64,000 nucleotides of DNA from Candidatus Omnitrophota bacterium (GTDB taxonomy: Bacteria; Omnitrophota; Gorgyraeia; 2-01-FULL-45-10): positions 101,269 to 165,268 of the forward strand of contig JBAZKH010000003.1 of the NCBI GenBank assembly GCA_041650935.1. The letters are read 5' to 3'. Both the position numbers and the translations under genes were made by a program. This document shows positions 5,740 through 60,853 of the stretch, one piece after another. The notes beneath the pieces were generated by a model. The model ran no database searches and had not been told where the DNA came from. It saw only the letters and a program-made list of their open reading frames with translations. The stretch's first letter is position 1. Each line of letters starts with the position of its first letter.

Positions 5740-5915
5740 ACAAAACGCCTACCGATAAACTACCGATAAACTTTTTTGATTCCCAACCTGGCTTGCCATA
5801 GCGGCCTTTTCTTTCATAGTCCTGGCCCATATCCGGCCGCAAATAGACACAATATCAGCCTCCCGTTGTTTAGGGGTCATCATGTGATAAAAAGTTCCTT
5901 TCATGCTTTTGGTTT

Positions 5916-7004
5916 ATGGTATATAATACGGGTATGAAAGGCCGTATTATGCCATTTAACCCAAAATATACCATAACCGAAAAAATACTCTATAACCTCA
6001 CCATGATTGCCGCGGCCCGTGAGGTTATAGAGAGCTCTTATCTTATCCCTAAATGGGAAGCGTCGCTTCGCAGGCAGGCAAAACTGCGCAACACCCATTC
6101 GTCCACCGCCATTGAAGGCAATAAACTTACACTTGAACAAGTTGAGGCCCTTGCTGATGGTAAGGATGTTATCGCTACCGATAAAGACAAGAAGGAAGTG
6201 CTTAATTACCTTGAGGCGCTGGACGCTATTCATTCCTTTGCCGAGAAAGGCAATGTCAGGGTCGAAGACCTTCTTAATATTCACAGAATGGTTTCAAAGA
6301 ACGTCTTGCGGAATAATAAACACAGCGGCGCCTTCCGCGACCGGCAGGTCTTTGTGGGTAGACGTGTTTTTGACGGAACAGGATTTAAGGAAGAGGTAGA
6401 ATACATGCCTCCGTCCACCCGGGACGTACCTAATCTGGTAAAGGAATTTATTGCCTGGCTTAATTTAGATAAGACATGGGAAATAAATCCGGTTTTACTT
6501 GCCGGGATTACCCACTACGAGATCGCCAGGATCCATCCTTTTATTGACGGCAATGGTCGGACAGCCCGGCTTTTTGCGACGCTTATTATTTACTTAAGCG
6601 GCTTTGACCATCGCAGACTTTTTGCCCTCGATGATTTTTATGACCGTGACAGGCAGGCGTATTACGCGGCCTTGAAAACAGCCCAGGATAATAACAATGA
6701 CATCAGCAAATGGCTTGAATACTTCACCGCAGGCGTAGCATATTCTGTTAATGAGATAAAAGAGGCTGTTCTGAAATTGGGGGCTAAGAAAAAACGCGAT
6801 TCAAAAGAGCAAATCCCTCTTACCGACAAACAGATGAAGATCGTCGAATTTATCAATGCACGCGGCAAAGTCACTAACAAAGATATGCAGACGCTTTTTA
6901 AGATTTCGGCTCAGGCCGTGCACAAGGAGCTGGCAAAGCTGGTAGAGCTTAAAGTAATCAAACCGCAAGGCGCCGGACGTTCGCTGTATTACGTTTTGGA
7001 ATAA
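5916..7004 (+). CDS. Fic family protein (AMPylase/adenylyltransferase) with C-terminal winged-HTH
   Basis: Canonical Fic motif HPFIDGNGRTARL. The C-terminal ~60 aa are DeoR/wHTH-like (KQMKIVEFINARGKVTNKDMQTLFKISAQAVHKEL). The true start may be the internal MKG or MPF Met. Confidence 0.85.
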   Translation: MVYNTGMKGRIMPFNPKYTITEKILYNLTMIAAAREVIESSYLIPKWEASLRRQAKLRNTHSSTAIEGNKLTLEQVEALADGKDVIATDKDKKEVLNYLEALDAIHSFAEKGNVRVEDLLNIHRMVSKNVLRNNKHSGAFRDRQVFVGRRVFDGTGFKEEVEYMPPSTRDVPNLVKEFIAWLNLDKTWEINPVLLAGITHYEIARIHPFIDGNGRTARLFATLIIYLSGFDHRRLFALDDFYDRDRQAYYAALKTAQDNNNDISKWLEYFTAGVAYSVNEIKEAVLKLGAKKKRDSKEQIPLTDKQMKIVEFINARGKVTNKDMQTLFKISAQAVHKELAKLVELKVIKPQGAGRSLYYVLE

Positions 7005-24495: not shown

Positions 24496-24520
24496 ATTCC
24501 CGCCATCTGACAGCTAACAG

Positions 24521-25099
24521 CTAACTCCTGACTTCGCTATATGCCCGCTCGATAGCTTTAAGGTTTCCCTCTATGACTTCGGGCTTAGACTTGAACTTTT
24601 TTTCGAGCTTCTTGCGCATATCCTCGGACATTGCCTTAAAATCGAGTATGCCGGTCGCTTTTATGAGCGCGCCAAGCATCGGCGTATTGGGTATATCCCT
24701 GCCTATGGTCTCCATGGATATAGTAGAGGCGTCGACCGTAAAGACCTTGATAGAGCCTGTTATATTGAATATCTTCTTGATATCGGCAGGCGGCTTTTCG
24801 CTATTAATAACGAGAACGCCGTTTACAGGTATACCTTCGGTCACATCCACAGTCTCTATAAGAGTCGGATCGAGGACCATTACAATAGAGGGATTTTCCA
24901 CTCCGGAATGGAGCAGGATCGGCTTGGATGAAATACGGTTAAACGCTGTAACGGGCGCGCCCATGCGCTCCGGACCATACTCCGGAAACGCCTGTATATA
25001 CATTCCTTGGGCAAGCGCAGCGTCCGCAAATAAAAGAGCGGCCGTCTTTGCTCCCTGGCCGCCCCTTCCATGCCAGCGAATTTCAGTTAATTCTTTCAT
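24521..25099 (-). CDS. porG: Pyruvate:ferredoxin oxidoreductase gamma subunit
   Basis: 192 aa: MKELTEIRWHGRGGQGAKTAALLFADAA..., a typical PorG. Confidence 0.9.
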   Translation of the reverse strand: MKELTEIRWHGRGGQGAKTAALLFADAALAQGMYIQAFPEYGPERMGAPVTAFNRISSKPILLHSGVENPSIVMVLDPTLIETVDVTEGIPVNGVLVINSEKPPADIKKIFNITGSIKVFTVDASTISMETIGRDIPNTPMLGALIKATGILDFKAMSEDMRKKLEKKFKSKPEVIEGNLKAIERAYSEVRS

Positions 25100-53400: not shown

Positions 53401-54396
53401 CTATCTATGAAGTATTTGACGCAACGCAAGGTAAGATAAGGCCGATATGAATGCCGAACACGGTATGGTCAATATCCAGGCCCAGACGATCCTGCCGGCA
53501 ACACCCCATTTTACCGCGCTCAAGCGCCTGAGAGAGCCAATGCCCATAATGGCGCCGGTAATGGTATGCGTCGTGCTTACGGGGATACCGAATCCGGAAG
53601 AGATGAATAATGTAGCGGCGGCGCCCAGTTCGGCGCAAAAACCGTCGACCGGTTTTAACTTCGCCACCTTCTGCCCCATCGTCTTGACTACACGCCATCC
53701 GCCGAACATCGTACCGGCCGCAATGGCCATATAGCAGGCTATGATAATCCAAAACGGGATGTAGAATTTGTCACCAAGCAGCCCCGCGCTGAATAGAAGG
53801 CTCGCTATGATTCCCATCGTCTTCTGCGCATCGTTCCCGCCGTGGCCCAGGCTGTAAAATGCCGCCGAGAGTAACTGCCCCTTGCGGAATATGTGATCGA
53901 CCTGGGCGGGAGCGCTCGACCTGAATATCCAGTAGACTACTATTCCAAGTCCAAGGCCCAATGCGAGCCCCAGTACCGGGGATATAAAGATAAACGCGAC
54001 TGTCTTGATGATGCCGCTCCACAAAAGCGCCCCGGTGCCGACCTTTGCCAGCGCTGCCCCTATCATCCCGCCGATCAGCGCGTGGGATGAGCTCGTCGGA
54101 AGCCCCAGATACCATGTAATAATGTTCCATCCGCACGCTCCTATGAGCGCGCCGAAGATCGTCATCTTGTCGATAGTATTTATATCGACGATGCCCTTGC
54201 CTATAGTGGTCGCAACATGCAGCCCGAAGAAGAGGAACGCGGCGAAGTTAAAGAACGCCGCCCATATCACGGCTTTTTTCGGGGATAATACGCGTGTAGA
54301 AACAATAGTAGCTATGGAGTTAGCGGAATCGTGGAACCCGTTTAAAAAATCGAACAGGAGCGCGAGGGCTATAAGAAAAAGTATGGCCAGCGTCAT
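53401..54396 (-). CDS. Inorganic phosphate transporter, PiT (PHO4) family
   Basis: GFHDSANSIAT and a repeated GxNDAQK motif (GHGGNDAQKTMG). Confidence 0.85.
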   Translation of the reverse strand: MTLAILFLIALALLFDFLNGFHDSANSIATIVSTRVLSPKKAVIWAAFFNFAAFLFFGLHVATTIGKGIVDINTIDKMTIFGALIGACGWNIITWYLGLPTSSSHALIGGMIGAALAKVGTGALLWSGIIKTVAFIFISPVLGLALGLGLGIVVYWIFRSSAPAQVDHIFRKGQLLSAAFYSLGHGGNDAQKTMGIIASLLFSAGLLGDKFYIPFWIIIACYMAIAAGTMFGGWRVVKTMGQKVAKLKPVDGFCAELGAAATLFISSGFGIPVSTTHTITGAIMGIGSLRRLSAVKWGVAGRIVWAWILTIPCSAFISALSYLALRQILHR

Positions 54397-54399
54397 TTA

Positions 54400-55026
54400 T
54401 CAGGCCTGCTTTACAAGGATGGATTGGACTACGTGCGCGACGTCTTCACAGATATCGAGGACCGTCTCAGCGTCCTGATATATCTCTTTCAATTTTATTA
54501 TTTCGATGGGATCTTTCGACGTCTCGAAAAGCTCGGCAAGGACATTATCCCTCATCGTATCGCCTAAATTCTCGAGGCTGTTTATCTCTACGCACGCATT
54601 CGAAACATCTTTGGCCTTTTTAGGATCCCTCAGGCCTTTTATGGCGCACGACACGGCATAGACGGATTCGCCGATCATCGACGCGAATTCCATCAGGTTC
54701 TTGTTCGGTCCGGCAATCTTATATACCTTCATCCTGTTAACGATCGTATACAGCATGTCGATCACGTCATCCAGCTCTTTTGCCAGCGCGTGAATGTCTT
54801 CCCTGTCAAAAGGCGTAATGAAGGTTTTATTCAGGCTGTCGAGGATGGTATGCGCGACTTCGTCGCCCTGGTGCTCGATCTCGTGCATCGTTGTAAGAGA
54901 CGCCTCGTCGAGAGCGCTCTTCGATACAAGCTCTTTGAAGCATTCGGCCGCGTCTACGGCGTAACCGGCCTGTTTTTCGAATAGGTCGAAGAAATTAAAA
55001 TCTTTAGGGAAAAATTTGAATAACAT
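54400..55026 (-). CDS. DUF47 / PhoU-like phosphate transport regulator, partner of PiT
   Basis: 208 aa helical protein, translationally coupled to PiT. Confidence 0.75.
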   Translation of the reverse strand: MLFKFFPKDFNFFDLFEKQAGYAVDAAECFKELVSKSALDEASLTTMHEIEHQGDEVAHTILDSLNKTFITPFDREDIHALAKELDDVIDMLYTIVNRMKVYKIAGPNKNLMEFASMIGESVYAVSCAIKGLRDPKKAKDVSNACVEINSLENLGDTMRDNVLAELFETSKDPIEIIKLKEIYQDAETVLDICEDVAHVVQSILVKQA

Positions 55027-55079
55027 GATGATTCATTATAAGTGGCATGGTTGGAAGTGTCAATGGGAAAAAATTTATG

Positions 55080-55748
55080 TTACTTCAGCTTTTCGGGGTG
55101 GTGTTTGACGACCTCGGCCTGGACCATATAGATGACATCTTCGGCAATATTTGTGGTATGGTCGCATATCCGTTCCAGGAAGCGCGTAATTAGCAGAAGC
55201 TGGACGGCTCTGGGAGCCGTGGATGGATCCTTCAACATGTAATCCTCTATAAGCTCTTTCGAGATCAGGTTTCGCAAGCTATCGGCCTCGGCGTCGGAAA
55301 GTATTACTTTACGCGCCAGCTCTACATCGCCTTTTATAAAAGAATCTACGGCCATCTTCACCATATTCTGCGCGATTGCTGTCAGTTTAGGGATGTCTAC
55401 AAGCGGCTTTAATAGAGGTTTATCTGCGAGCTCCAGCACCCGCTGGGCTATATCTAAGGCTATGTCGGCAATACGTTCCAGTTCGGCGTTTAATTTCATG
55501 CCGGTCGTAATAAAACGCAGGTCTTTGGCCATCGGTTGGTAGCGCGCGATAAGGTCGATGCATCTCTCATCAATATCGAGCTCCAGCTTGTCTATATTGG
55601 CATCGTTGGCTATGACGCTCTTCGCCAGTTCCCCGTCCCGGCCTTTCAACGCTTCTATCGATTTATAGATAGCCTCTTCCGCATAGCATCCAATCTTCAG
55701 GATCTCCTGGTTCAACTCTTTCAATTCCTGGTCTAAATGTCTTTCCAT
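55080..55748 (-). CDS. phoU: Phosphate signalling complex protein PhoU
   Basis: Two PhoU repeats with the conserved E(R/x)IADxAxxIAE and ERICDH motifs. Confidence 0.9.
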   Translation of the reverse strand: MERHLDQELKELNQEILKIGCYAEEAIYKSIEALKGRDGELAKSVIANDANIDKLELDIDERCIDLIARYQPMAKDLRFITTGMKLNAELERIADIALDIAQRVLELADKPLLKPLVDIPKLTAIAQNMVKMAVDSFIKGDVELARKVILSDAEADSLRNLISKELIEDYMLKDPSTAPRAVQLLLITRFLERICDHTTNIAEDVIYMVQAEVVKHHPEKLK

Positions 55749-55761
55749 GGTAACCCTCCGT

Positions 55762-55940
55762 TTTAGCTCTTAGGTCATAGCTATTAGCTCATAGCTCTTA
55801 GCTCATAGGTCATAGGGAGTAGCTCGTAGGTCATAGGTCATAGGTTTATAGGAAAATTTTATTCTTACCCCTATCACCTATCAGCTATGACCTATCACCT
55901 ATGAGCTATCAGCTAAGAGCTATGAGCTATCACCTACACT
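55762..55940. repeat. Long imperfect palindrome, about 80-bp arms, each made of degenerate 8-9-nt tandem units (tagctcata/taggtcata), between pstB and phoU
   Basis: Left arm ggtcatagctattagctcatagctcttagctcataggtcatagg.... Right arm ...cctatcacctatcagctatgacctatcacctatgagctatcagctaagagctatgagctatcacc. The centre is ggaaaattttattcttacc. Confidence 0.8.
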
Positions 55941-56694
55941 ACCCATATCTTCCCGTGATATAATCCTCTGTCCTCTTATCCTGCGGCGCGGTAAATATCT
56001 GCTCCGTCCTGCCGAATTCTATCAGTTCGCCAAGGAGCATGAAGCCGGTGTCGTCTGAAACGCGCGCCGCCTGCTGCATGTTGTGCGTGACTATTATTAT
56101 AGTATAATTACTCTTCAACTCACGCATTAATTCTTCGATCCTCGCGGTCGCCTGCGGGTCGAGGGTCGAACACGGCTCGTCCATCAAGAGCACGTCCGGC
56201 TTGACCGCTATGAGCCGCGCGATGCAGAGCCTCTGTTTTTGCTCTAGCGATAACGAGAGAGCCGATTTATTCAAGCCGTCTTTCAACTCGTCCCATAATA
56301 ACACGCTCTTAAGGCTCGCCTCAACTATCCCGTCCAGATCGTTACGTTTGATATTTTCCGTATGTATCCTCTGGCCGAAAACTATATTCTCATAAATTGA
56401 CAAAGGAAACGGGTTGGGCCTCTGGAAGACCATTCCGACCTTTTTGCGTAAACTCACCAGGTCCGCTTTGCCGCCCAGTATATTTTCTCCGTCGATAATA
56501 ACCTCACCTGCCTGCCGGACACTCTCTATCAGGTCGTTCATCCTGTTAAAAATCCGAAGAAGCGTCGACTTACCGCAACCCGAAGGCCCTATTATCGCGG
56601 TAATCTTTTTGGGCGCGAAACTCGAATTCACATCTTTGATCGCGTGAAAACCGCCATACCATAAATTGAGTTTTCTGGTGACTATTTTGCTCAT
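55939..56694 (-). CDS. pstB: Phosphate ABC transporter ATP-binding protein PstB
   Basis: Walker [10 protein letters not shown], signature LSLEQKQRL, Walker B LLMDEP. Confidence 0.9.
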
Positions 56695-57449
56695 CCGAAC
56701 TTTCCTCTTATATATCCGTCAGTGCGTTTATCACGCGGCGCGGTAAATATCTTATCGGTACTGTCAATCTCAAGCAGTTCTCCGCTCAGGAAGAACGCCG
56801 TCCTGTCCCCGACCCTTGCCGCCTGTTTTACGTTATTCGTCACAAGCACTATCGTATATTTTTCTTTCAGTTTTAGCATCGCGTCTTCGACTTTAGCCGT
56901 CGAAATAGGATCGAGCCCCGAACACGGTTCGTCGAAAAGTATCACCTCCGGACCCACCGCAAGGGTCCTCGCTATGCAAAGGCGCTGCTGCTGGCCGCCT
57001 GATAATTTAAACGCCGACTCATCGAGCCTGTCCTTAACCTCCTCCCAGAGGTAGGCCTGCCGAAGCGCCTCCTCGACATGCGTCTTTATGCCTCTGCGTT
57101 TGATCTTGGCTTGCATACTTATTCCGTATGCTACATTATCGAATATCGAAAGCGGGAGAGGAAGCGGGAGCGCGAAGACCATCCCCACCCTGCGCCGGAG
57201 AGACTCTACGTCGAGGCCCCTGGTGTCCTGGCGCTCAAGCTCTATCAAACCCGTCATCCTGCAATTAGCGCTCAAGTCGTTCAGGCGATTCAGCGCGCGC
57301 AAAAAAGTCGTCTTCCCGCTGTTGGACGGCCCGATTACGCTCAAGATCTCGTTTGCATTGATCTCCATGCTCACATCTTTTAAAACACGGAGCGCGCCGA
57401 ACCATATATTTAAATCGTGAAGCTCGAATTTTGTCTGCGGGGCTACCAT
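56691..57449 (-). CDS. pstB: Phosphate ABC transporter ATP-binding protein, second tandem PstB paralog
   Basis: Walker [10 protein letters not shown], signature LSGGQQQRL, Walker B ILFDEP. It overlaps the downstream pstB by 4 nt. Confidence 0.85.
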
Positions 57450-58294
57450 TTCTTCTTCTTTCTGAATTTATAACGGATAATTATCGCAACCAGGTTCATG
57501 AAGAGCACCATTGCCAGCAATACGAGCGCGGTCCCGTATCTCACCTTTTCATCGACGTTAGGCACCTGGGTCGAAATTACATATAAGTGGTACGGCAAAG
57601 CCATCGCCTGGTCAAAGATCGAAGCCGGAAGCTGCGGCAGGTAAAATGCCGCAACGGTAAAGAGTATCGGCGCAGTTTCGCCCGCCGCGCGGCCGAGCCC
57701 CAGGATCGTGCCAGTCAGGACGCCGGGGATGGCGTTCGGCAGGACTATGCGGCGTATTGTCTGCCATTTACTTGCGCCGAGCGACAGGCTCACTTCGCGA
57801 AAAGATTGCGGCACGCTCTCGAGCGCCTCGCGCGACGTAGTAATGATAATCGGCAGTATCATTATGCCCAGCGTAAGCGAACCTGAAAGTATCGACGCGC
57901 CGAACTTAAAGAATGTGACGAAGAGCGCGAGGCCGAAGAGACCGTAGACCACCGACGGCACGCCCGCCAGATTTACGATAGCGAGCCTTATTATCCGGCT
58001 TATGAAATTTTCTTTAGAATATTCGCTCAAATATATCGCGGCCAAAAGCCCTATGGGAAGCGCAAAAAGGATCGCGCCCGAAACTAAATATAGCGTGCCG
58101 ACGATCGCCGGGAATATACCTCCGGCGCGCATTCCCTGGCGCGGGATATCCGACAAGAATTGCCAATTTATCGCGGGCAGGCCCTTCTGGATGATGATTA
58201 CAACGATAAGCCCCACCGGCACGACTATCAAAAGCGTCGCCAGGAAGAGTAACGCAAAAGCTATTTTTTGTGATCTGTAAGGGTTTCTTTTCAC
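57443..58294 (-). CDS. pstA: Phosphate ABC transporter permease PstA
   Basis: 283 aa with 6 TM helices and the EAA-like loop. The start is GTG. Confidence 0.85.
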   Translation of the reverse strand: MKRNPYRSQKIAFALLFLATLLIVVPVGLIVVIIIQKGLPAINWQFLSDIPRQGMRAGGIFPAIVGTLYLVSGAILFALPIGLLAAIYLSEYSKENFISRIIRLAIVNLAGVPSVVYGLFGLALFVTFFKFGASILSGSLTLGIMILPIIITTSREALESVPQSFREVSLSLGASKWQTIRRIVLPNAIPGVLTGTILGLGRAAGETAPILFTVAAFYLPQLPASIFDQAMALPYHLYVISTQVPNVDEKVRYGTALVLLAMVLFMNLVAIIIRYKFRKKKKW

Positions 58295-58342: not shown

Positions 58343-59206
58343 TCATTTCTTTTTGTGGAGAAACAGGTCTGCGGTCACATTGATCGCGAAACTTATAACA
58401 AATAACACTATGCCGATGGCAAACAAAGCAAAATAATGCTCGCTGCCCACCACCGCCTCGCCCATCTCCGCGGCGACTGTCGCCGTCAACGTCCTGACAG
58501 GGGCAAGTATGCTCTGCGGGATCACGGCGGCATTACCCGTGATCATCATGACCGCCATCGTCTCGCCTATCACGCGGCCTATCCCCAGCATCACTGCCGC
58601 AAGTATCCCGCTCGACGCGGCGGGAAGCATCACTCTGCGTATCGTCTGCCAGTGTGTGGCCCCGAGAGCAAAGGCGCCCTCTTTATAACTCTTAGGCACG
58701 GAGTAAAGGGCGTCCTCGGCAATAGAAACGATCGTCGGCATTGCCATGAACGCAAGCATTATCGAGCCCGATAAAGCCGTCAGCCCCGTCGGCAGATGAA
58801 ATAAACTTTTCACAAGCGGAACGAGCGTAACCATTCCTATGAATCCCAAAACAACGCTCGGTATTGCCGCCAGGAGTTCTATCCCCGCCTTCAAAACTTC
58901 TTTTGACCTTGCAGGAGCGATCTCGGCTATGTACACCGCGCAGCCAACACCTATCGGAATAGAAATTATGGCGGCGCCCATAGTCACAAGGAGGGATCCG
59001 AGTATGAGCGGAAGTATGCCAAGCTGAGGCGGTTCGGAGATAGGGTACCAGCTCTTGCCCAGTAAAAATTCGGGTAATCTTATAAACTTGAATAACGCGA
59101 GACCTTCTTTGAGAAGAAAGAGAAAGATAATCGCAACGATAAATATCGACACCATGCCGCAGATAAGTATAAGCTTCTCTATGATAAACTCTTTGAATTT
59201 ACGCAT
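58343..59206 (-). CDS. pstC: Phosphate ABC transporter permease PstC
   Basis: 287 aa and 6 TM helices. Confidence 0.85.
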   Translation of the reverse strand: MRKFKEFIIEKLILICGMVSIFIVAIIFLFLLKEGLALFKFIRLPEFLLGKSWYPISEPPQLGILPLILGSLLVTMGAAIISIPIGVGCAVYIAEIAPARSKEVLKAGIELLAAIPSVVLGFIGMVTLVPLVKSLFHLPTGLTALSGSIMLAFMAMPTIVSIAEDALYSVPKSYKEGAFALGATHWQTIRRVMLPAASSGILAAVMLGIGRVIGETMAVMMITGNAAVIPQSILAPVRTLTATVAAEMGEAVVGSEHYFALFAIGIVLFVISFAINVTADLFLHKKK

Positions 59207-59255: not shown

Positions 59256-60110
59256 CTATTTACTTACCGGCACAAAGTCGGTTGCGAGCACTATCTCCTG
59301 CCCTTCCTTAGAGAGGCAGAAATCTACAAATTTTTTCACGAGCCCGCGGGGCTGGCCGTTTGTATAGATAAATAACGGCCTCGATATCGGATATTTGCCG
59401 CTTATGACATTCTCTATCGTAGGCGCTTCATACTCCGGTCTGCCGTCTCCGGCTATCCAGACGGGTTTCTGCTTAGCGGAGACGTATCCCATACCGTAAT
59501 ACCCTATAGCATCGGGGTTACCGGCCACTTCGTCGGCGATCGCCTGGGAGGATGAGAGCATAAGCGCTGTCGGCGCAAACTCTTCTTTGGAATTTGGGTC
59601 GTTTTTTCTCAAGACGTGTTCTTTAAAATATACATGCGTCCCGGAATTGACCTCACGCGATAATAGAACAATGGTTCCGTTATTACCTCCGAGATCTTTC
59701 CAGTTTTTTACCCTGCCTGTAAAGATATCCGCAAGCTGCGCCACGGTAAGTTTTCCGATCGGGTTCTTTGGGTTCACCACTACCGCTAGTCCGTCCAGGG
59801 CCGCCTTTATTTCGTTCGGATTTATCCCTTTTTTGTTCGCCAGCGCGACCTCCTTCTCTTTTATGTTCCTGGAGCTCATCGCGACGTCGCAAGTGCCGCT
59901 GATAAGGCTGGATAGCCCTGTCCCGGAACCTCCGCCGGTAACGGCAACGAAATCACCCGGGTTCGCCTCCATATATCGTTCCGCCCACGCCTGGCCCAGA
60001 TTCACCATCGTATCGGAGCCTTTGACTTGTATCGAATTTTTCGCAGGCGCCGCATATGCTGAAGCCGCGAAGAAACTTATAACAAAAAATACGATCCATT
60101 TTTTAGACAT
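59256..60110 (-). CDS. pstS: Phosphate-binding protein PstS
   Basis: Signal peptide (MSKKWIVFFVISFFAASAYA) then a periplasmic-binding fold with SGTGLSSL... The start was chosen at the internal Met. Confidence 0.85.
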   Translation of the reverse strand: MSKKWIVFFVISFFAASAYAAPAKNSIQVKGSDTMVNLGQAWAERYMEANPGDFVAVTGGGSGTGLSSLISGTCDVAMSSRNIKEKEVALANKKGINPNEIKAALDGLAVVVNPKNPIGKLTVAQLADIFTGRVKNWKDLGGNNGTIVLLSREVNSGTHVYFKEHVLRKNDPNSKEEFAPTALMLSSSQAIADEVAGNPDAIGYYGMGYVSAKQKPVWIAGDGRPEYEAPTIENVISGKYPISRPLFIYTNGQPRGLVKKFVDFCLSKEGQEIVLATDFVPVSK

Positions 60111-60187
60111 ACCATTCCCCCTTTTTGCCAATATTATACTATCCCTGTATTAGATCTATATTAGGCAGGTGTAAAATCTATGTAAAA

Positions 60188-60853
60188 TCAGAATATCAGC
60201 TTCAGTTTCAAGCCGAGGATATTCGCGTCTGTCCAGCGCCCCGATTTCTTTGTGCTCTGCAGCATATAATAGATATCGCCTTTTAAGTTTTTCAGAAAGT
60301 CGAGCGATACCCCGGCAGCAAACCTATTTTTGTCCCATGCGGCATTATTCAGTTTAACAAAAACTTCGTTTGAGACATACGGCTGGATCCCGAGGGGCGT
60401 AAACTTCCACGGAGCCTTTATGAGCAATCTGTTGCGGTATTGCACGCTATCTTCCCTTTTGTCATCGAACAGCTTGAGAGCAAAGCGGTTCCTGTCTTCA
60501 AGCTTGAATCCATAAAGCTCGTATTTTGGGGTTATATTCAGGTAAGGATAGTATTCCGGCTTAAACTTCCCCTTCTCCCCTTCATATATCTGCCGGTAGT
60601 TGATGCTCGTGGTCAAATATTTATTGACGTCATAGGCCAGTCCGAGGTCGTAATGATGATAATAAAGCTCGCCCGCACTATCACCGTAGCGGAACTCTTC
60701 CTCCGCAAGTAACTTTGTTCCTTCTTTCAGATTGACATCCTGTACTTCAGTGTGCCATATCTGAAAGTCACCGTCTGTGTAACCGTAAAGATCGCAGTTT
60801 AATGCTTCCAGGCACAAAACCAACAACGCCGATCTAACTATATTCCTAAACAT
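60188..60853 (-). CDS. Outer-membrane beta-barrel protein (DUF2490-like), between pstS and phoR
   Basis: 221 aa. Signal peptide, an alternating amphipathic pattern and a C-terminal aromatic residue (...LKLIF). Confidence 0.55.
   Translation of the reverse strand: MFRNIVRSALLVLCLEALNCDLYGYTDGDFQIWHTEVQDVNLKEGTKLLAEEEFRYGDSAGELYYHHYDLGLAYDVNKYLTTSINYRQIYEGEKGKFKPEYYPYLNITPKYELYGFKLEDRNRFALKLFDDKREDSVQYRNRLLIKAPWKFTPLGIQPYVSNEVFVKLNNAAWDKNRFAAGVSLDFLKNLKGDIYYMLQSTKKSGRWTDANILGLKLKLIF

Follow-up and report, generated by a model that had tools for sequence, protein, structure and literature searches.

A 173-nt palindrome of heptanucleotide repeats in the pstB-phoU spacer of an Omnitrophota genome, a putative intercistronic mRNA stem-loop

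The STRR heptamers of cyanobacteria were reportedly described by Mazel et al. in 1990. According to the work of Mrazek (2007) as cited in two later papers, heptamers outnumber every other class of long simple-sequence repeat in most prokaryotic genomes, which is ascribed to polymerase slippage (PMC4679880, PMC4692102). Each Xanthomonas genome carries 70 to 75 pairs of convergent GGGAATC arrays that have the potential to form stem-loops. These pairs sit between genes, at a mean distance of 28 nt from the upstream open reading frame (ORF), and most are transcribed, with no known function (Rehm et al. 2015, PMC4692102). Nostoc PCC 7120 has a few convergent pairs with the unit GGGGAYT (PMC4692102), and paired heptanucleotide arrays in Geobacter metallireducens have been annotated as putative regulator sites (PMC2700814). 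Direct repeats of the heptamer TAACTGA are found in marine Beggiatoaceae, Cyanobacteria, and Bacteroidetes (MacGregor 2015, PMC4679880), and a posttranscriptional role has been proposed for them (PMC4679880). The locus described here offers a place to test what such repeats do.

REP hairpins lie between the cistrons of operons, for example between malE and malF in E. coli. Stem-loops at the 3' ends of cistrons set the stoichiometry of operons (PMC4423207, PMC8219983, PMC10667835). The element analyzed here occupies such an intercistronic position in a 64-kb stretch of DNA from a Candidatus Omnitrophota bacterium, hereafter the window. The surrounding genes are all encoded on the minus strand in the order pstS (59256-60131), pstC (58343-59206), pstA (57443-58294), pstB1 (56691-57449), pstB2 (55939-56694), spacer, and phoU (55080-55748). 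The ORF list and a match to NCBIfam TIGR00972 (PstB, E value of 5e-111, above cutoff) identify pstB2 as the second of two tandem pstB ATPase genes. The phoU gene was assigned by NCBIfam TIGR02135 (PhoU, E value of 1e-57, above cutoff), and its product is 100% identical to a protein named PhoU in a Candidatus Omnitrophota metagenome-assembled genome (MAG). The spacer between the TAG stop codon of pstB2 (55939-55941) and the ATG of phoU (55746-55748) spans 55749-55938 and measures 190 nt, the size given in the original prediction.

Two features of the neighboring genes are recorded here as observations in their own right. The tandem paralogues pstB1 and pstB2 overlap by 4 nt, an arrangement that is kept in related Omnitrophota loci. 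Downstream of phoU are a PhoU_div/DUF47 gene (54400-55026) and a Pit/PHO4 transporter gene (53401-54396), both on the minus strand, and the 53-nt gap between phoU and the DUF47/PhoU_div gene contains TTGACA-17 nt-TATAAT (55035-55063, minus strand), a 12/12 match to the sigma-70 consensus. This suggests that the DUF47/PhoU_div and Pit pair has its own strong promoter. In the closest relative (locus L001, PhoU 91% identical), the corresponding gap is 545 nt (1063-1606) instead of 53 nt and contains several inverted repeats.

The palindrome proper occupies 173 nt of the spacer (55764-55936) and consists of two opposed runs of a 7-nt unit. Tandem Repeats Finder returned a period of 7 and its multiples 14, 21, and 28 in both halves, with 76 to 80% matches across the two arms. 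On the mRNA strand, the 5' arm (55870-55937) is composed of 10 tandem TAGSTSA heptamers (period 7, 9.6 copies, 80% matches) that read TAGGTGA, TAGCTCA, TAGCTCT, TAGCTGA ... TAGGGGT, and the array starts 2 nt past the pstB2 stop codon. An AT-rich center or loop (55848-55869), with the mRNA-strand sequence GGTAAGAATAAAATTTTCCTAT and about 13 nt unpaired in the RNA fold, separates it from the 3' arm (55764-55847), which contains 12 tandem heptamers (period 7, 10.7 copies) complementary to the 5' arm and reads TAGCTCT, TAGGTCA, TAGCTAT ... TAGGTTT on the plus strand. The counts of 10 and 12 units were read from a short-read MAG assembly, and the exact number is uncertain. The 3' arm also has a weak higher-order period of 28 nt, or four units (Tandem Repeats Finder score of 99), and its two outermost units (55764-55776) sit beyond the main stem. 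The unit follows a regular pattern in which TAG.T forms an invariant core and two positions vary only between C and G. We conclude with good confidence that the element is a pair of convergent heptanucleotide simple-sequence repeat arrays, (TAGSTSA)10-loop-(TSASCTA)12.

The two segments that form the inverted repeat (55778-55844 and 55870-55936) are each 67 nt long, are 81% complementary, and are separated by 25 nt. The repeat pattern matched 17 to 20 times in the spacer against 0.5 to 0.8 matches expected for the entire window. The spacer consists almost wholly of two inverted arms and is highly nonrandom, as originally proposed; both the excess of pattern matches over an expectation of less than one and a fold far better than that of shuffled sequences bear this out. 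The dimensions required correction. A palindrome of about 180 bp with arms of about 80 nt had been described, and the palindrome holds at 173 nt with 67-nt complementary arms. The proposed 8- to 9-nt unit was one heptamer read together with 2 nt of the next ("tagctcata"), and in place of about eight copies per arm, 10 units (55870-55937) and 12 units (55764-55847) were counted.

The arrays are intergenic and lie closer to the end of the upstream ORF (2 nt) than to the downstream ORF (15 nt). The final 15 nt of the spacer (55749-55763), which lie outside the repeat arrays, include the phoU Shine-Dalgarno (SD) sequence GGAGGG (55754-55759, minus strand) 5 nt before the ATG. The 3' end of the spacer, AAAACGGAGGGTTACC, bears this SD immediately before the start codon. 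Thus, the hairpin begins 2 nt past the pstB2 stop codon, the arrays stop 15 nt before the ATG, and both the SD and the ATG of phoU are left free outside the long stem.

Folding of the element as RNA yielded −91.6 kcal/mol for the sense strand (z score of −8.6), a value that none of 200 shuffled sequences equaled, and −87.9 kcal/mol for the antisense strand (z score of −10.0). The 190-nt spacer alone folded as RNA at −87.4 kcal/mol (z score of −8.7), and the DNA fold was −42.8 kcal/mol (z score of −9.4). The minimum-energy structure is a 62-bp stem, the outermost pair of which joins positions 55937 and 55777. It is interrupted by six 1×1 mismatches (G.G, A.A, G.G, C.C, C.C, and G.G), three small asymmetric bulges or loops, and one 8-nt bulge. 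Among 28 related spacers, the sense strand folded better in 16, so that sense and antisense showed no asymmetry (Wilcoxon P = 0.38), and neither G.U counts nor sense-versus-antisense energies separated selection at the RNA level from selection at the DNA level in this set. Because there is no strand asymmetry and the mismatches in the window are G.G, C.C, and A.A rather than G.U, RNA is not indicated over DNA as the selected level. A search of Rfam 15 gave no match at or above the gathering score; only generic animal microRNA precursor models were hit, at 23 to 35 bits against gathering scores of 61 to 80.

The pstB-phoU junction was compared across about 90 related Omnitrophota loci, comprising 80 metagenome loci and the loci of the closest homologues. 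The sequence of the element was absent from all of these junctions, leaving the window as its sole carrier, and the related spacers, which differ in content, measured anywhere between 1 nt and over 800 nt. The original prediction had called for such a comparison, and the outcome was divided between short spacers in the closest relatives and unrelated hairpins in most spacers of at least 60 nt. In the closest relatives (PhoU 87 to 91% identical), the spacer is 1, 1, and 13 nt long. In those with 1-nt spacers, the SD GGGAGG lies inside the 3' end of pstB, which implies that translation of pstB and phoU is coupled. About 35 relatives have spacers of only 1 to 18 nt, so a hairpin at this junction is not obligatory. 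Among the related spacers of 60 to 209 nt, 20 of 28 folded at z < −2 (median z score of −3.3), with hairpins that are unrelated in sequence and begin 1 to 20 nt past the stop codon.

Two of the related loci, L166 and L203, carry smaller heptamer-array hairpins at the same site, built from a different unit, TAGCGNN, with three to five units per arm. These hairpins are orthologous; the aligned junction region including the element averages 90% column identity, and the two differ in one arm by an insertion or deletion of roughly one unit (6 alignment columns), the kind of change expected from slippage. In both (L203, 1407-1500; L166, 977-1064), each 7-nt unit contributes 6 bp and one 1×1 mismatch. 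The mismatch recurs every 7 nt in the L203 stem, where the unpaired sense-strand base is A on both arms in three of four mismatches. The comparison across relatives thus identifies the junction as a permissive, often structured spacer, and the window contains the largest heptamer version of the junction hairpin.

Other structures were observed at this junction. A hairpin with a conserved YCCCTCG...CTCGGGR stem base and a variable top is found in L002 (2922-3000), L141, L145, L150, L162, L163, L164, L176, L178, L183, and L208. It is often followed by a second hairpin in which two TGAAATTTCA palindromes bracket the phoU SD, and a role as a conserved regulatory RNA or as a site for a protein is conceivable. 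The spacer of L184 (1292-1500) contains three tandem 64-nt hairpin units of the CCCCCTCGCGGGAGCTCGGGG type, with a fold of −105 kcal/mol. In L129, L147, L151, L153, L172, L190, and L196, gaps of 409 to 825 nt separate the matched end of pstB from phoU. No period-7 signal was seen in these seven gaps, which may hold an extra small gene or another insert.

No second copy or comparable palindrome was found within the 64-kb window. The search for further unit arrays that had been suggested at the outset returned, in the window, a 2.3-unit TTAGCTG mini-array alone, so that the 64 kb contain one large element and this mini-array. The mini-array (24505-24530, minus strand) fills the 25-nt spacer between two minus-strand genes, with the TAG stop codon of the upstream gene forming part of its first unit, and its unit is the same as that of arrays in Acidobacteriota. 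The sole other inverted repeat of at least 24 nt in the window (5907-5966) is AT rich, with 25-nt arms that are 72% complementary and 10 nt apart. About 350 kb of related Omnitrophota DNA contained no other copy of the element. Strict period-7 arrays are rare in this DNA, yet scarcely any other period forms arrays there.

Beyond these loci, a scan for four copies of TAGSTNN in one genome per species returned at least 120 loci from many phyla, with one Omnitrophota locus among the matches listed. An inverted partner array within 150 nt accompanied about 15 to 20% of some 115 TAGSTNN arrays, again among the matches listed, and array-loop-array examples among these came from Acidobacteriota, Hymenobacter, Chamaesiphon, a Bacillota MAG, and an Elusimicrobia MAG. 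In the Omnitrophota MAG L088, CTATGAG/CTAAGAG units of the TAGSTSA family lie in a spacer between co-directional genes, where the fold is not significant. TAGSTSA arrays were also found in 49 viral contigs, 8 of which have hairpin-type arrangements. All of the hairpin-type TAGC-family examples that were examined are intergenic, and by crude ORF calling, most lie just beyond the 3' end of a gene. The arrays in genomes and viral contigs have the repeat unit alone in common with the window, since their loops differ, and a BLASTN search with the 211-nt element returned no match in phage genomes. One 47-kb viral contig (IMGVR_UViG_3300044798_000503) carries TAGCTGA/TCAGCTA arrays at four places (L221, L232, L245, and L246), at least two of them of the hairpin type. 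Four separate arrays in a single contig look like a dispersed family within it.

Several familiar identities for an intercistronic hairpin were considered and set aside. A scan of the spacer found no intrinsic (Rho-independent) terminator; the stem is followed by AAGAGCTAAAACGGAGGG, and with no U-tract, the element is not a terminator of this kind. The best candidate for an internal phoU promoter was a 9/12 match inside the hairpin that was no better than in shuffled sequences, and the region as a whole had 3 promoter-like sites versus 2.7 expected from shuffles. A REP/BIME element is a 20- to 40-nt imperfect palindrome with a GTAG or CGTC head and a high copy number, whereas the element is 173 nt long and single copy in 64 kb. 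A link to REP/RAYT through GTAG was rejected because this tetranucleotide arises trivially from TAG units.

We favor the interpretation that the element is a lineage-specific palindromic heptamer repeat that was built by slippage and works as an intercistronic mRNA stem-loop, and we give it roughly an even chance of being right. Replication slippage of 7-nt units and of multiunit blocks inside each arm would account for its growth, and the inverted layout may owe its origin or upkeep to template switching within a strand or to selection for pairing. The 28-nt period in the 3' arm, the roughly one-unit indel that separates L166 from L203, and the lack of a target-site duplication, a unique core, or other copies in the DNA searched together point to slippage and in-place palindrome formation, not transposition.

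The functional part of this interpretation is more tentative and falls somewhat short of an even chance. The operon transcript is predicted to fold into an imperfect stem-loop of about 62 bp between the pstB2 and phoU cistrons. This structure would break the pstB-phoU translational coupling that is present in the relatives with 1-nt spacers, and phoU would be translated from its own exposed SD. The stem-loop may also act as a barrier to 3' exonucleases and as a substrate for a double-strand RNase of the RNase III type, in which case the pstSCAB and phoU segments of the mRNA could differ in stability and amount. The logic would be that of "selective RNA processing and stabilisation" (SRPS) stem-loops. 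The heptamer makeup would reflect how the hairpin grew and would make its length mutable, and it is probably not itself the functional signal. This reading draws on the location of the stem right after the pstB2 stop codon, the sparing of the phoU SD and ATG, the replacement of coupling, and the hairpins in most of the longer related spacers. Three readings had been offered in the original prediction, and an RNA structure that decouples phoU from pstSCAB is the best supported of them, as we infer from the position of the element, the relatives with 1-nt spacers, and the hairpins in longer spacers. None of the three identified the element as paired arrays of a heptameric simple-sequence repeat, a kind on record from other bacteria (PMC4692102).

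The element could instead be a neutral by-product, a heptamer repeat that expanded and turned palindromic in a tolerant spacer and has no role in pst-phoU expression, an alternative that we regard as possible but rather less probable. Constraint is weak, as indicated by related spacers that differ in content and vary in length between 1 nt and over 800 nt, the element is found in 1 of about 90 related loci, folding shows no strand asymmetry, and heptamers are reported, in papers citing Mrazek 2007, as the top class of long prokaryotic simple-sequence repeats and ascribed to slippage (PMC4679880, PMC4692102). However, ribosomes and ribonucleases are very unlikely to ignore a 62-bp duplex within an operon that is transcribed, and the arms are still complementary despite variation at the level of the unit. 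The significant structure of 20 of the 28 longer related spacers and the TAGCGNN hairpin kept in two genomes, with 90% column identity over the junction region, likewise argue against neutrality. An assembly artifact, in which a repeat was misjoined or collapsed in a short-read MAG, is most improbable. Short-period repeats and palindromes are difficult to assemble, and an independent 4.9-kb Logan contig with an identical neighboring gene (DUF47) stops inside phoU, short of the element. Against this, the element lies midway in a 236-kb contig and is flanked by intact syntenic genes with a normal stop codon, SD, and start codon, the same architecture recurs in many independent assemblies that include complete genomes, and orthologous heptamer hairpins are present at the same site in two other metagenomes.

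The other two readings in the original prediction, a binding array and a MITE, fared less well. The binding-array reading would take the heptamers as a series of sites bound either by a DNA regulator, PhoB or some other, or by a protein that binds single-stranded RNA, such as one with cold-shock or S1 domains, which covers about 7 nt per monomer. The regular unit, with its invariant TAG.T core and C/G-only changes at two positions, fits such a role, as does the occurrence of the heptamer family in the Omnitrophota genome L088 and in viral contigs. Moreover, CspB binds heptamer repeats with one protein per unit, and proteins of this kind have been proposed for the TAACTGA repeats (PMC4679880). 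We nevertheless consider a binding array very unlikely. Pho boxes have repeats of about 7 nt spaced about 4 nt apart, an 11-bp period with which the 7-bp period of the spacer is incompatible, and a candidate Pho box upstream of pstS, which has the 11-bp period, contains two copies of GATTTTACA, a sequence unrelated to TAGSTSA. Since both arms are present, the units would be base paired rather than single stranded, which argues against a single-strand RNA-binding protein. With the 2.3-unit TTAGCTG mini-array as the only other array in 64 kb, no regulon-like set of arrays is apparent, and relatives use other units or nonrepetitive hairpins at the same site. A MITE or other mobile-element origin of the hairpin would explain why it is present here and absent from the orthologous site of the closest relatives, its architecture is palindromic and its size within the MITE range, and differing inserts seem to favor this junction as a hot spot. 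On the other side, the flanks GGGTAG/TG and CTAAAACGG contain no direct repeat when compared with the empty sites in L001, L205, and L125, and the element is made up entirely of tandem 7-mers without a unique core. A 10/14 similarity between the SD tail and the 3' end of pstB in L001 was rejected as a target duplication because relatives with short spacers have a like tail, and it represents ordinary SD similarity. There is no second copy in the window, the sequence is absent from the approximately 90 related loci, the 211-nt element has no phage match, and the TAGSTNN/TAGSTSA arrays found in genome and viral contigs match in the repeat unit alone and have different loops. With neither a target-site duplication nor a unique core, and with no further copy in the 64 kb, the element does not qualify as a MITE, and we consider a mobile origin highly unlikely.

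The candidate Pho box of the pst operon is itself an observation of interest. It has the form GATTTTACA-TA-GATTTTACA (60170-60189, minus strand) and starts at the upstream gene's stop codon; a TATAAT (60133-60138) follows about 30 nt downstream.

PhoU sets the strength of the response to phosphate in both the Pst transporter and the Pho regulon, which makes the ratio of PhoU to PstB physiologically important. A very long hairpin in place of tight translational coupling would be a simple means to shift this ratio. Across relatives, this one junction provides a natural series that extends from no spacer through ordinary hairpins and small heptamer hairpins to one very large heptamer hairpin, and the series is useful for testing the effect of inverted heptamer arrays. 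Even if neutral, the element would still be a clean case of slippage and palindrome formation filling permissive spacers. A broader idea, to which we assign a small probability, is that TAGC-type hairpins (TAGCTNN, TAGSTSA, and TAGCGNN) make up a class, spread across phyla, of RNA structures between cistrons or at 3' ends that slippage can tune. Hairpin arrays of this type were seen in Omnitrophota, Acidobacteriota, Bacteroidota, Cyanobacteriota, Bacillota, Elusimicrobia, and viral contigs. Were such a class to exist, gain and loss of 7-nt units would act as an evolvable rheostat, which in this case would adjust the dose of PhoU against that of the Pst transporter, and the unit might recur because a common factor generates or recognizes it rather than through chance convergence.

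Among known systems, the stem-loop would share its mechanism, by analogy, with the SRPS stem-loops. Here, as in those cases, a stable stem-loop stands at the 3' end of the upstream cistron, straight after its stop codon, the downstream ribosome-binding site is free, and the flanking genes form one same-strand operon. The effect of SRPS stem-loops is unequal stability and amount of the mRNA of the flanking cistrons, and the same would be expected here. They typically have 10 to 20 bp and are not built from tandem repeats, in contrast to the stem of about 62 bp in the window. MITEs and REP/BIME elements resemble the element in being small, palindromic, and intergenic and in their presence/absence polymorphism among related genomes. 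Unlike MITEs, it lacks a target-site duplication and conserved ends flanking a unique core, and the DNA searched yielded no further copies; REPs are 20 to 40 nt long with hundreds of copies, whereas the element spans 173 nt.

The TAACTGA repeats are likewise intergenic heptamer arrays beside start or stop codons, with stops in all frames and a scattered phylogeny. They differ in unit sequence and are short (2 to 6 units), in one orientation, and just upstream of start codons, with hundreds of sets per genome and one inverted case among 170 sets (PMC4679880). The convergent pairs of Xanthomonas, Nostoc, and Geobacter are closer. With them, the element shares head-to-tail 7-nt units, close arrays on opposite strands, the potential to form a stem-loop or cruciform, and an intergenic position between co-oriented genes near the end of the upstream ORF; the TAGCGNN hairpins of L166 and L203 suggest that the number of units may likewise vary between relatives. 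Three features of the inverted heptameric repeat pairs were found: tandem 7-nt units (at least four), close convergent arrays, and an intergenic location near the upstream ORF. The architecture is thus of a known, functionally unexplained kind. The unit TAGSTSA has no G-tract and therefore no G-quadruplex potential, unlike the Xanthomonas and Nostoc types; the window has a single large copy (10 plus 12 units) within 64 kb compared with about 180 genome-wide copies in the known type; and, unlike the Xanthomonas, Nostoc, and Geobacter pairs, the hairpin lies inside a pst-phoU operon. Such repeats were not reported for the Omnitrophota in the literature that we found. Its unit, its size, the phylum in which it occurs, and its place in this operon are new, and the hairpin is best filed as an unusually large member of the inverted heptameric repeat class.
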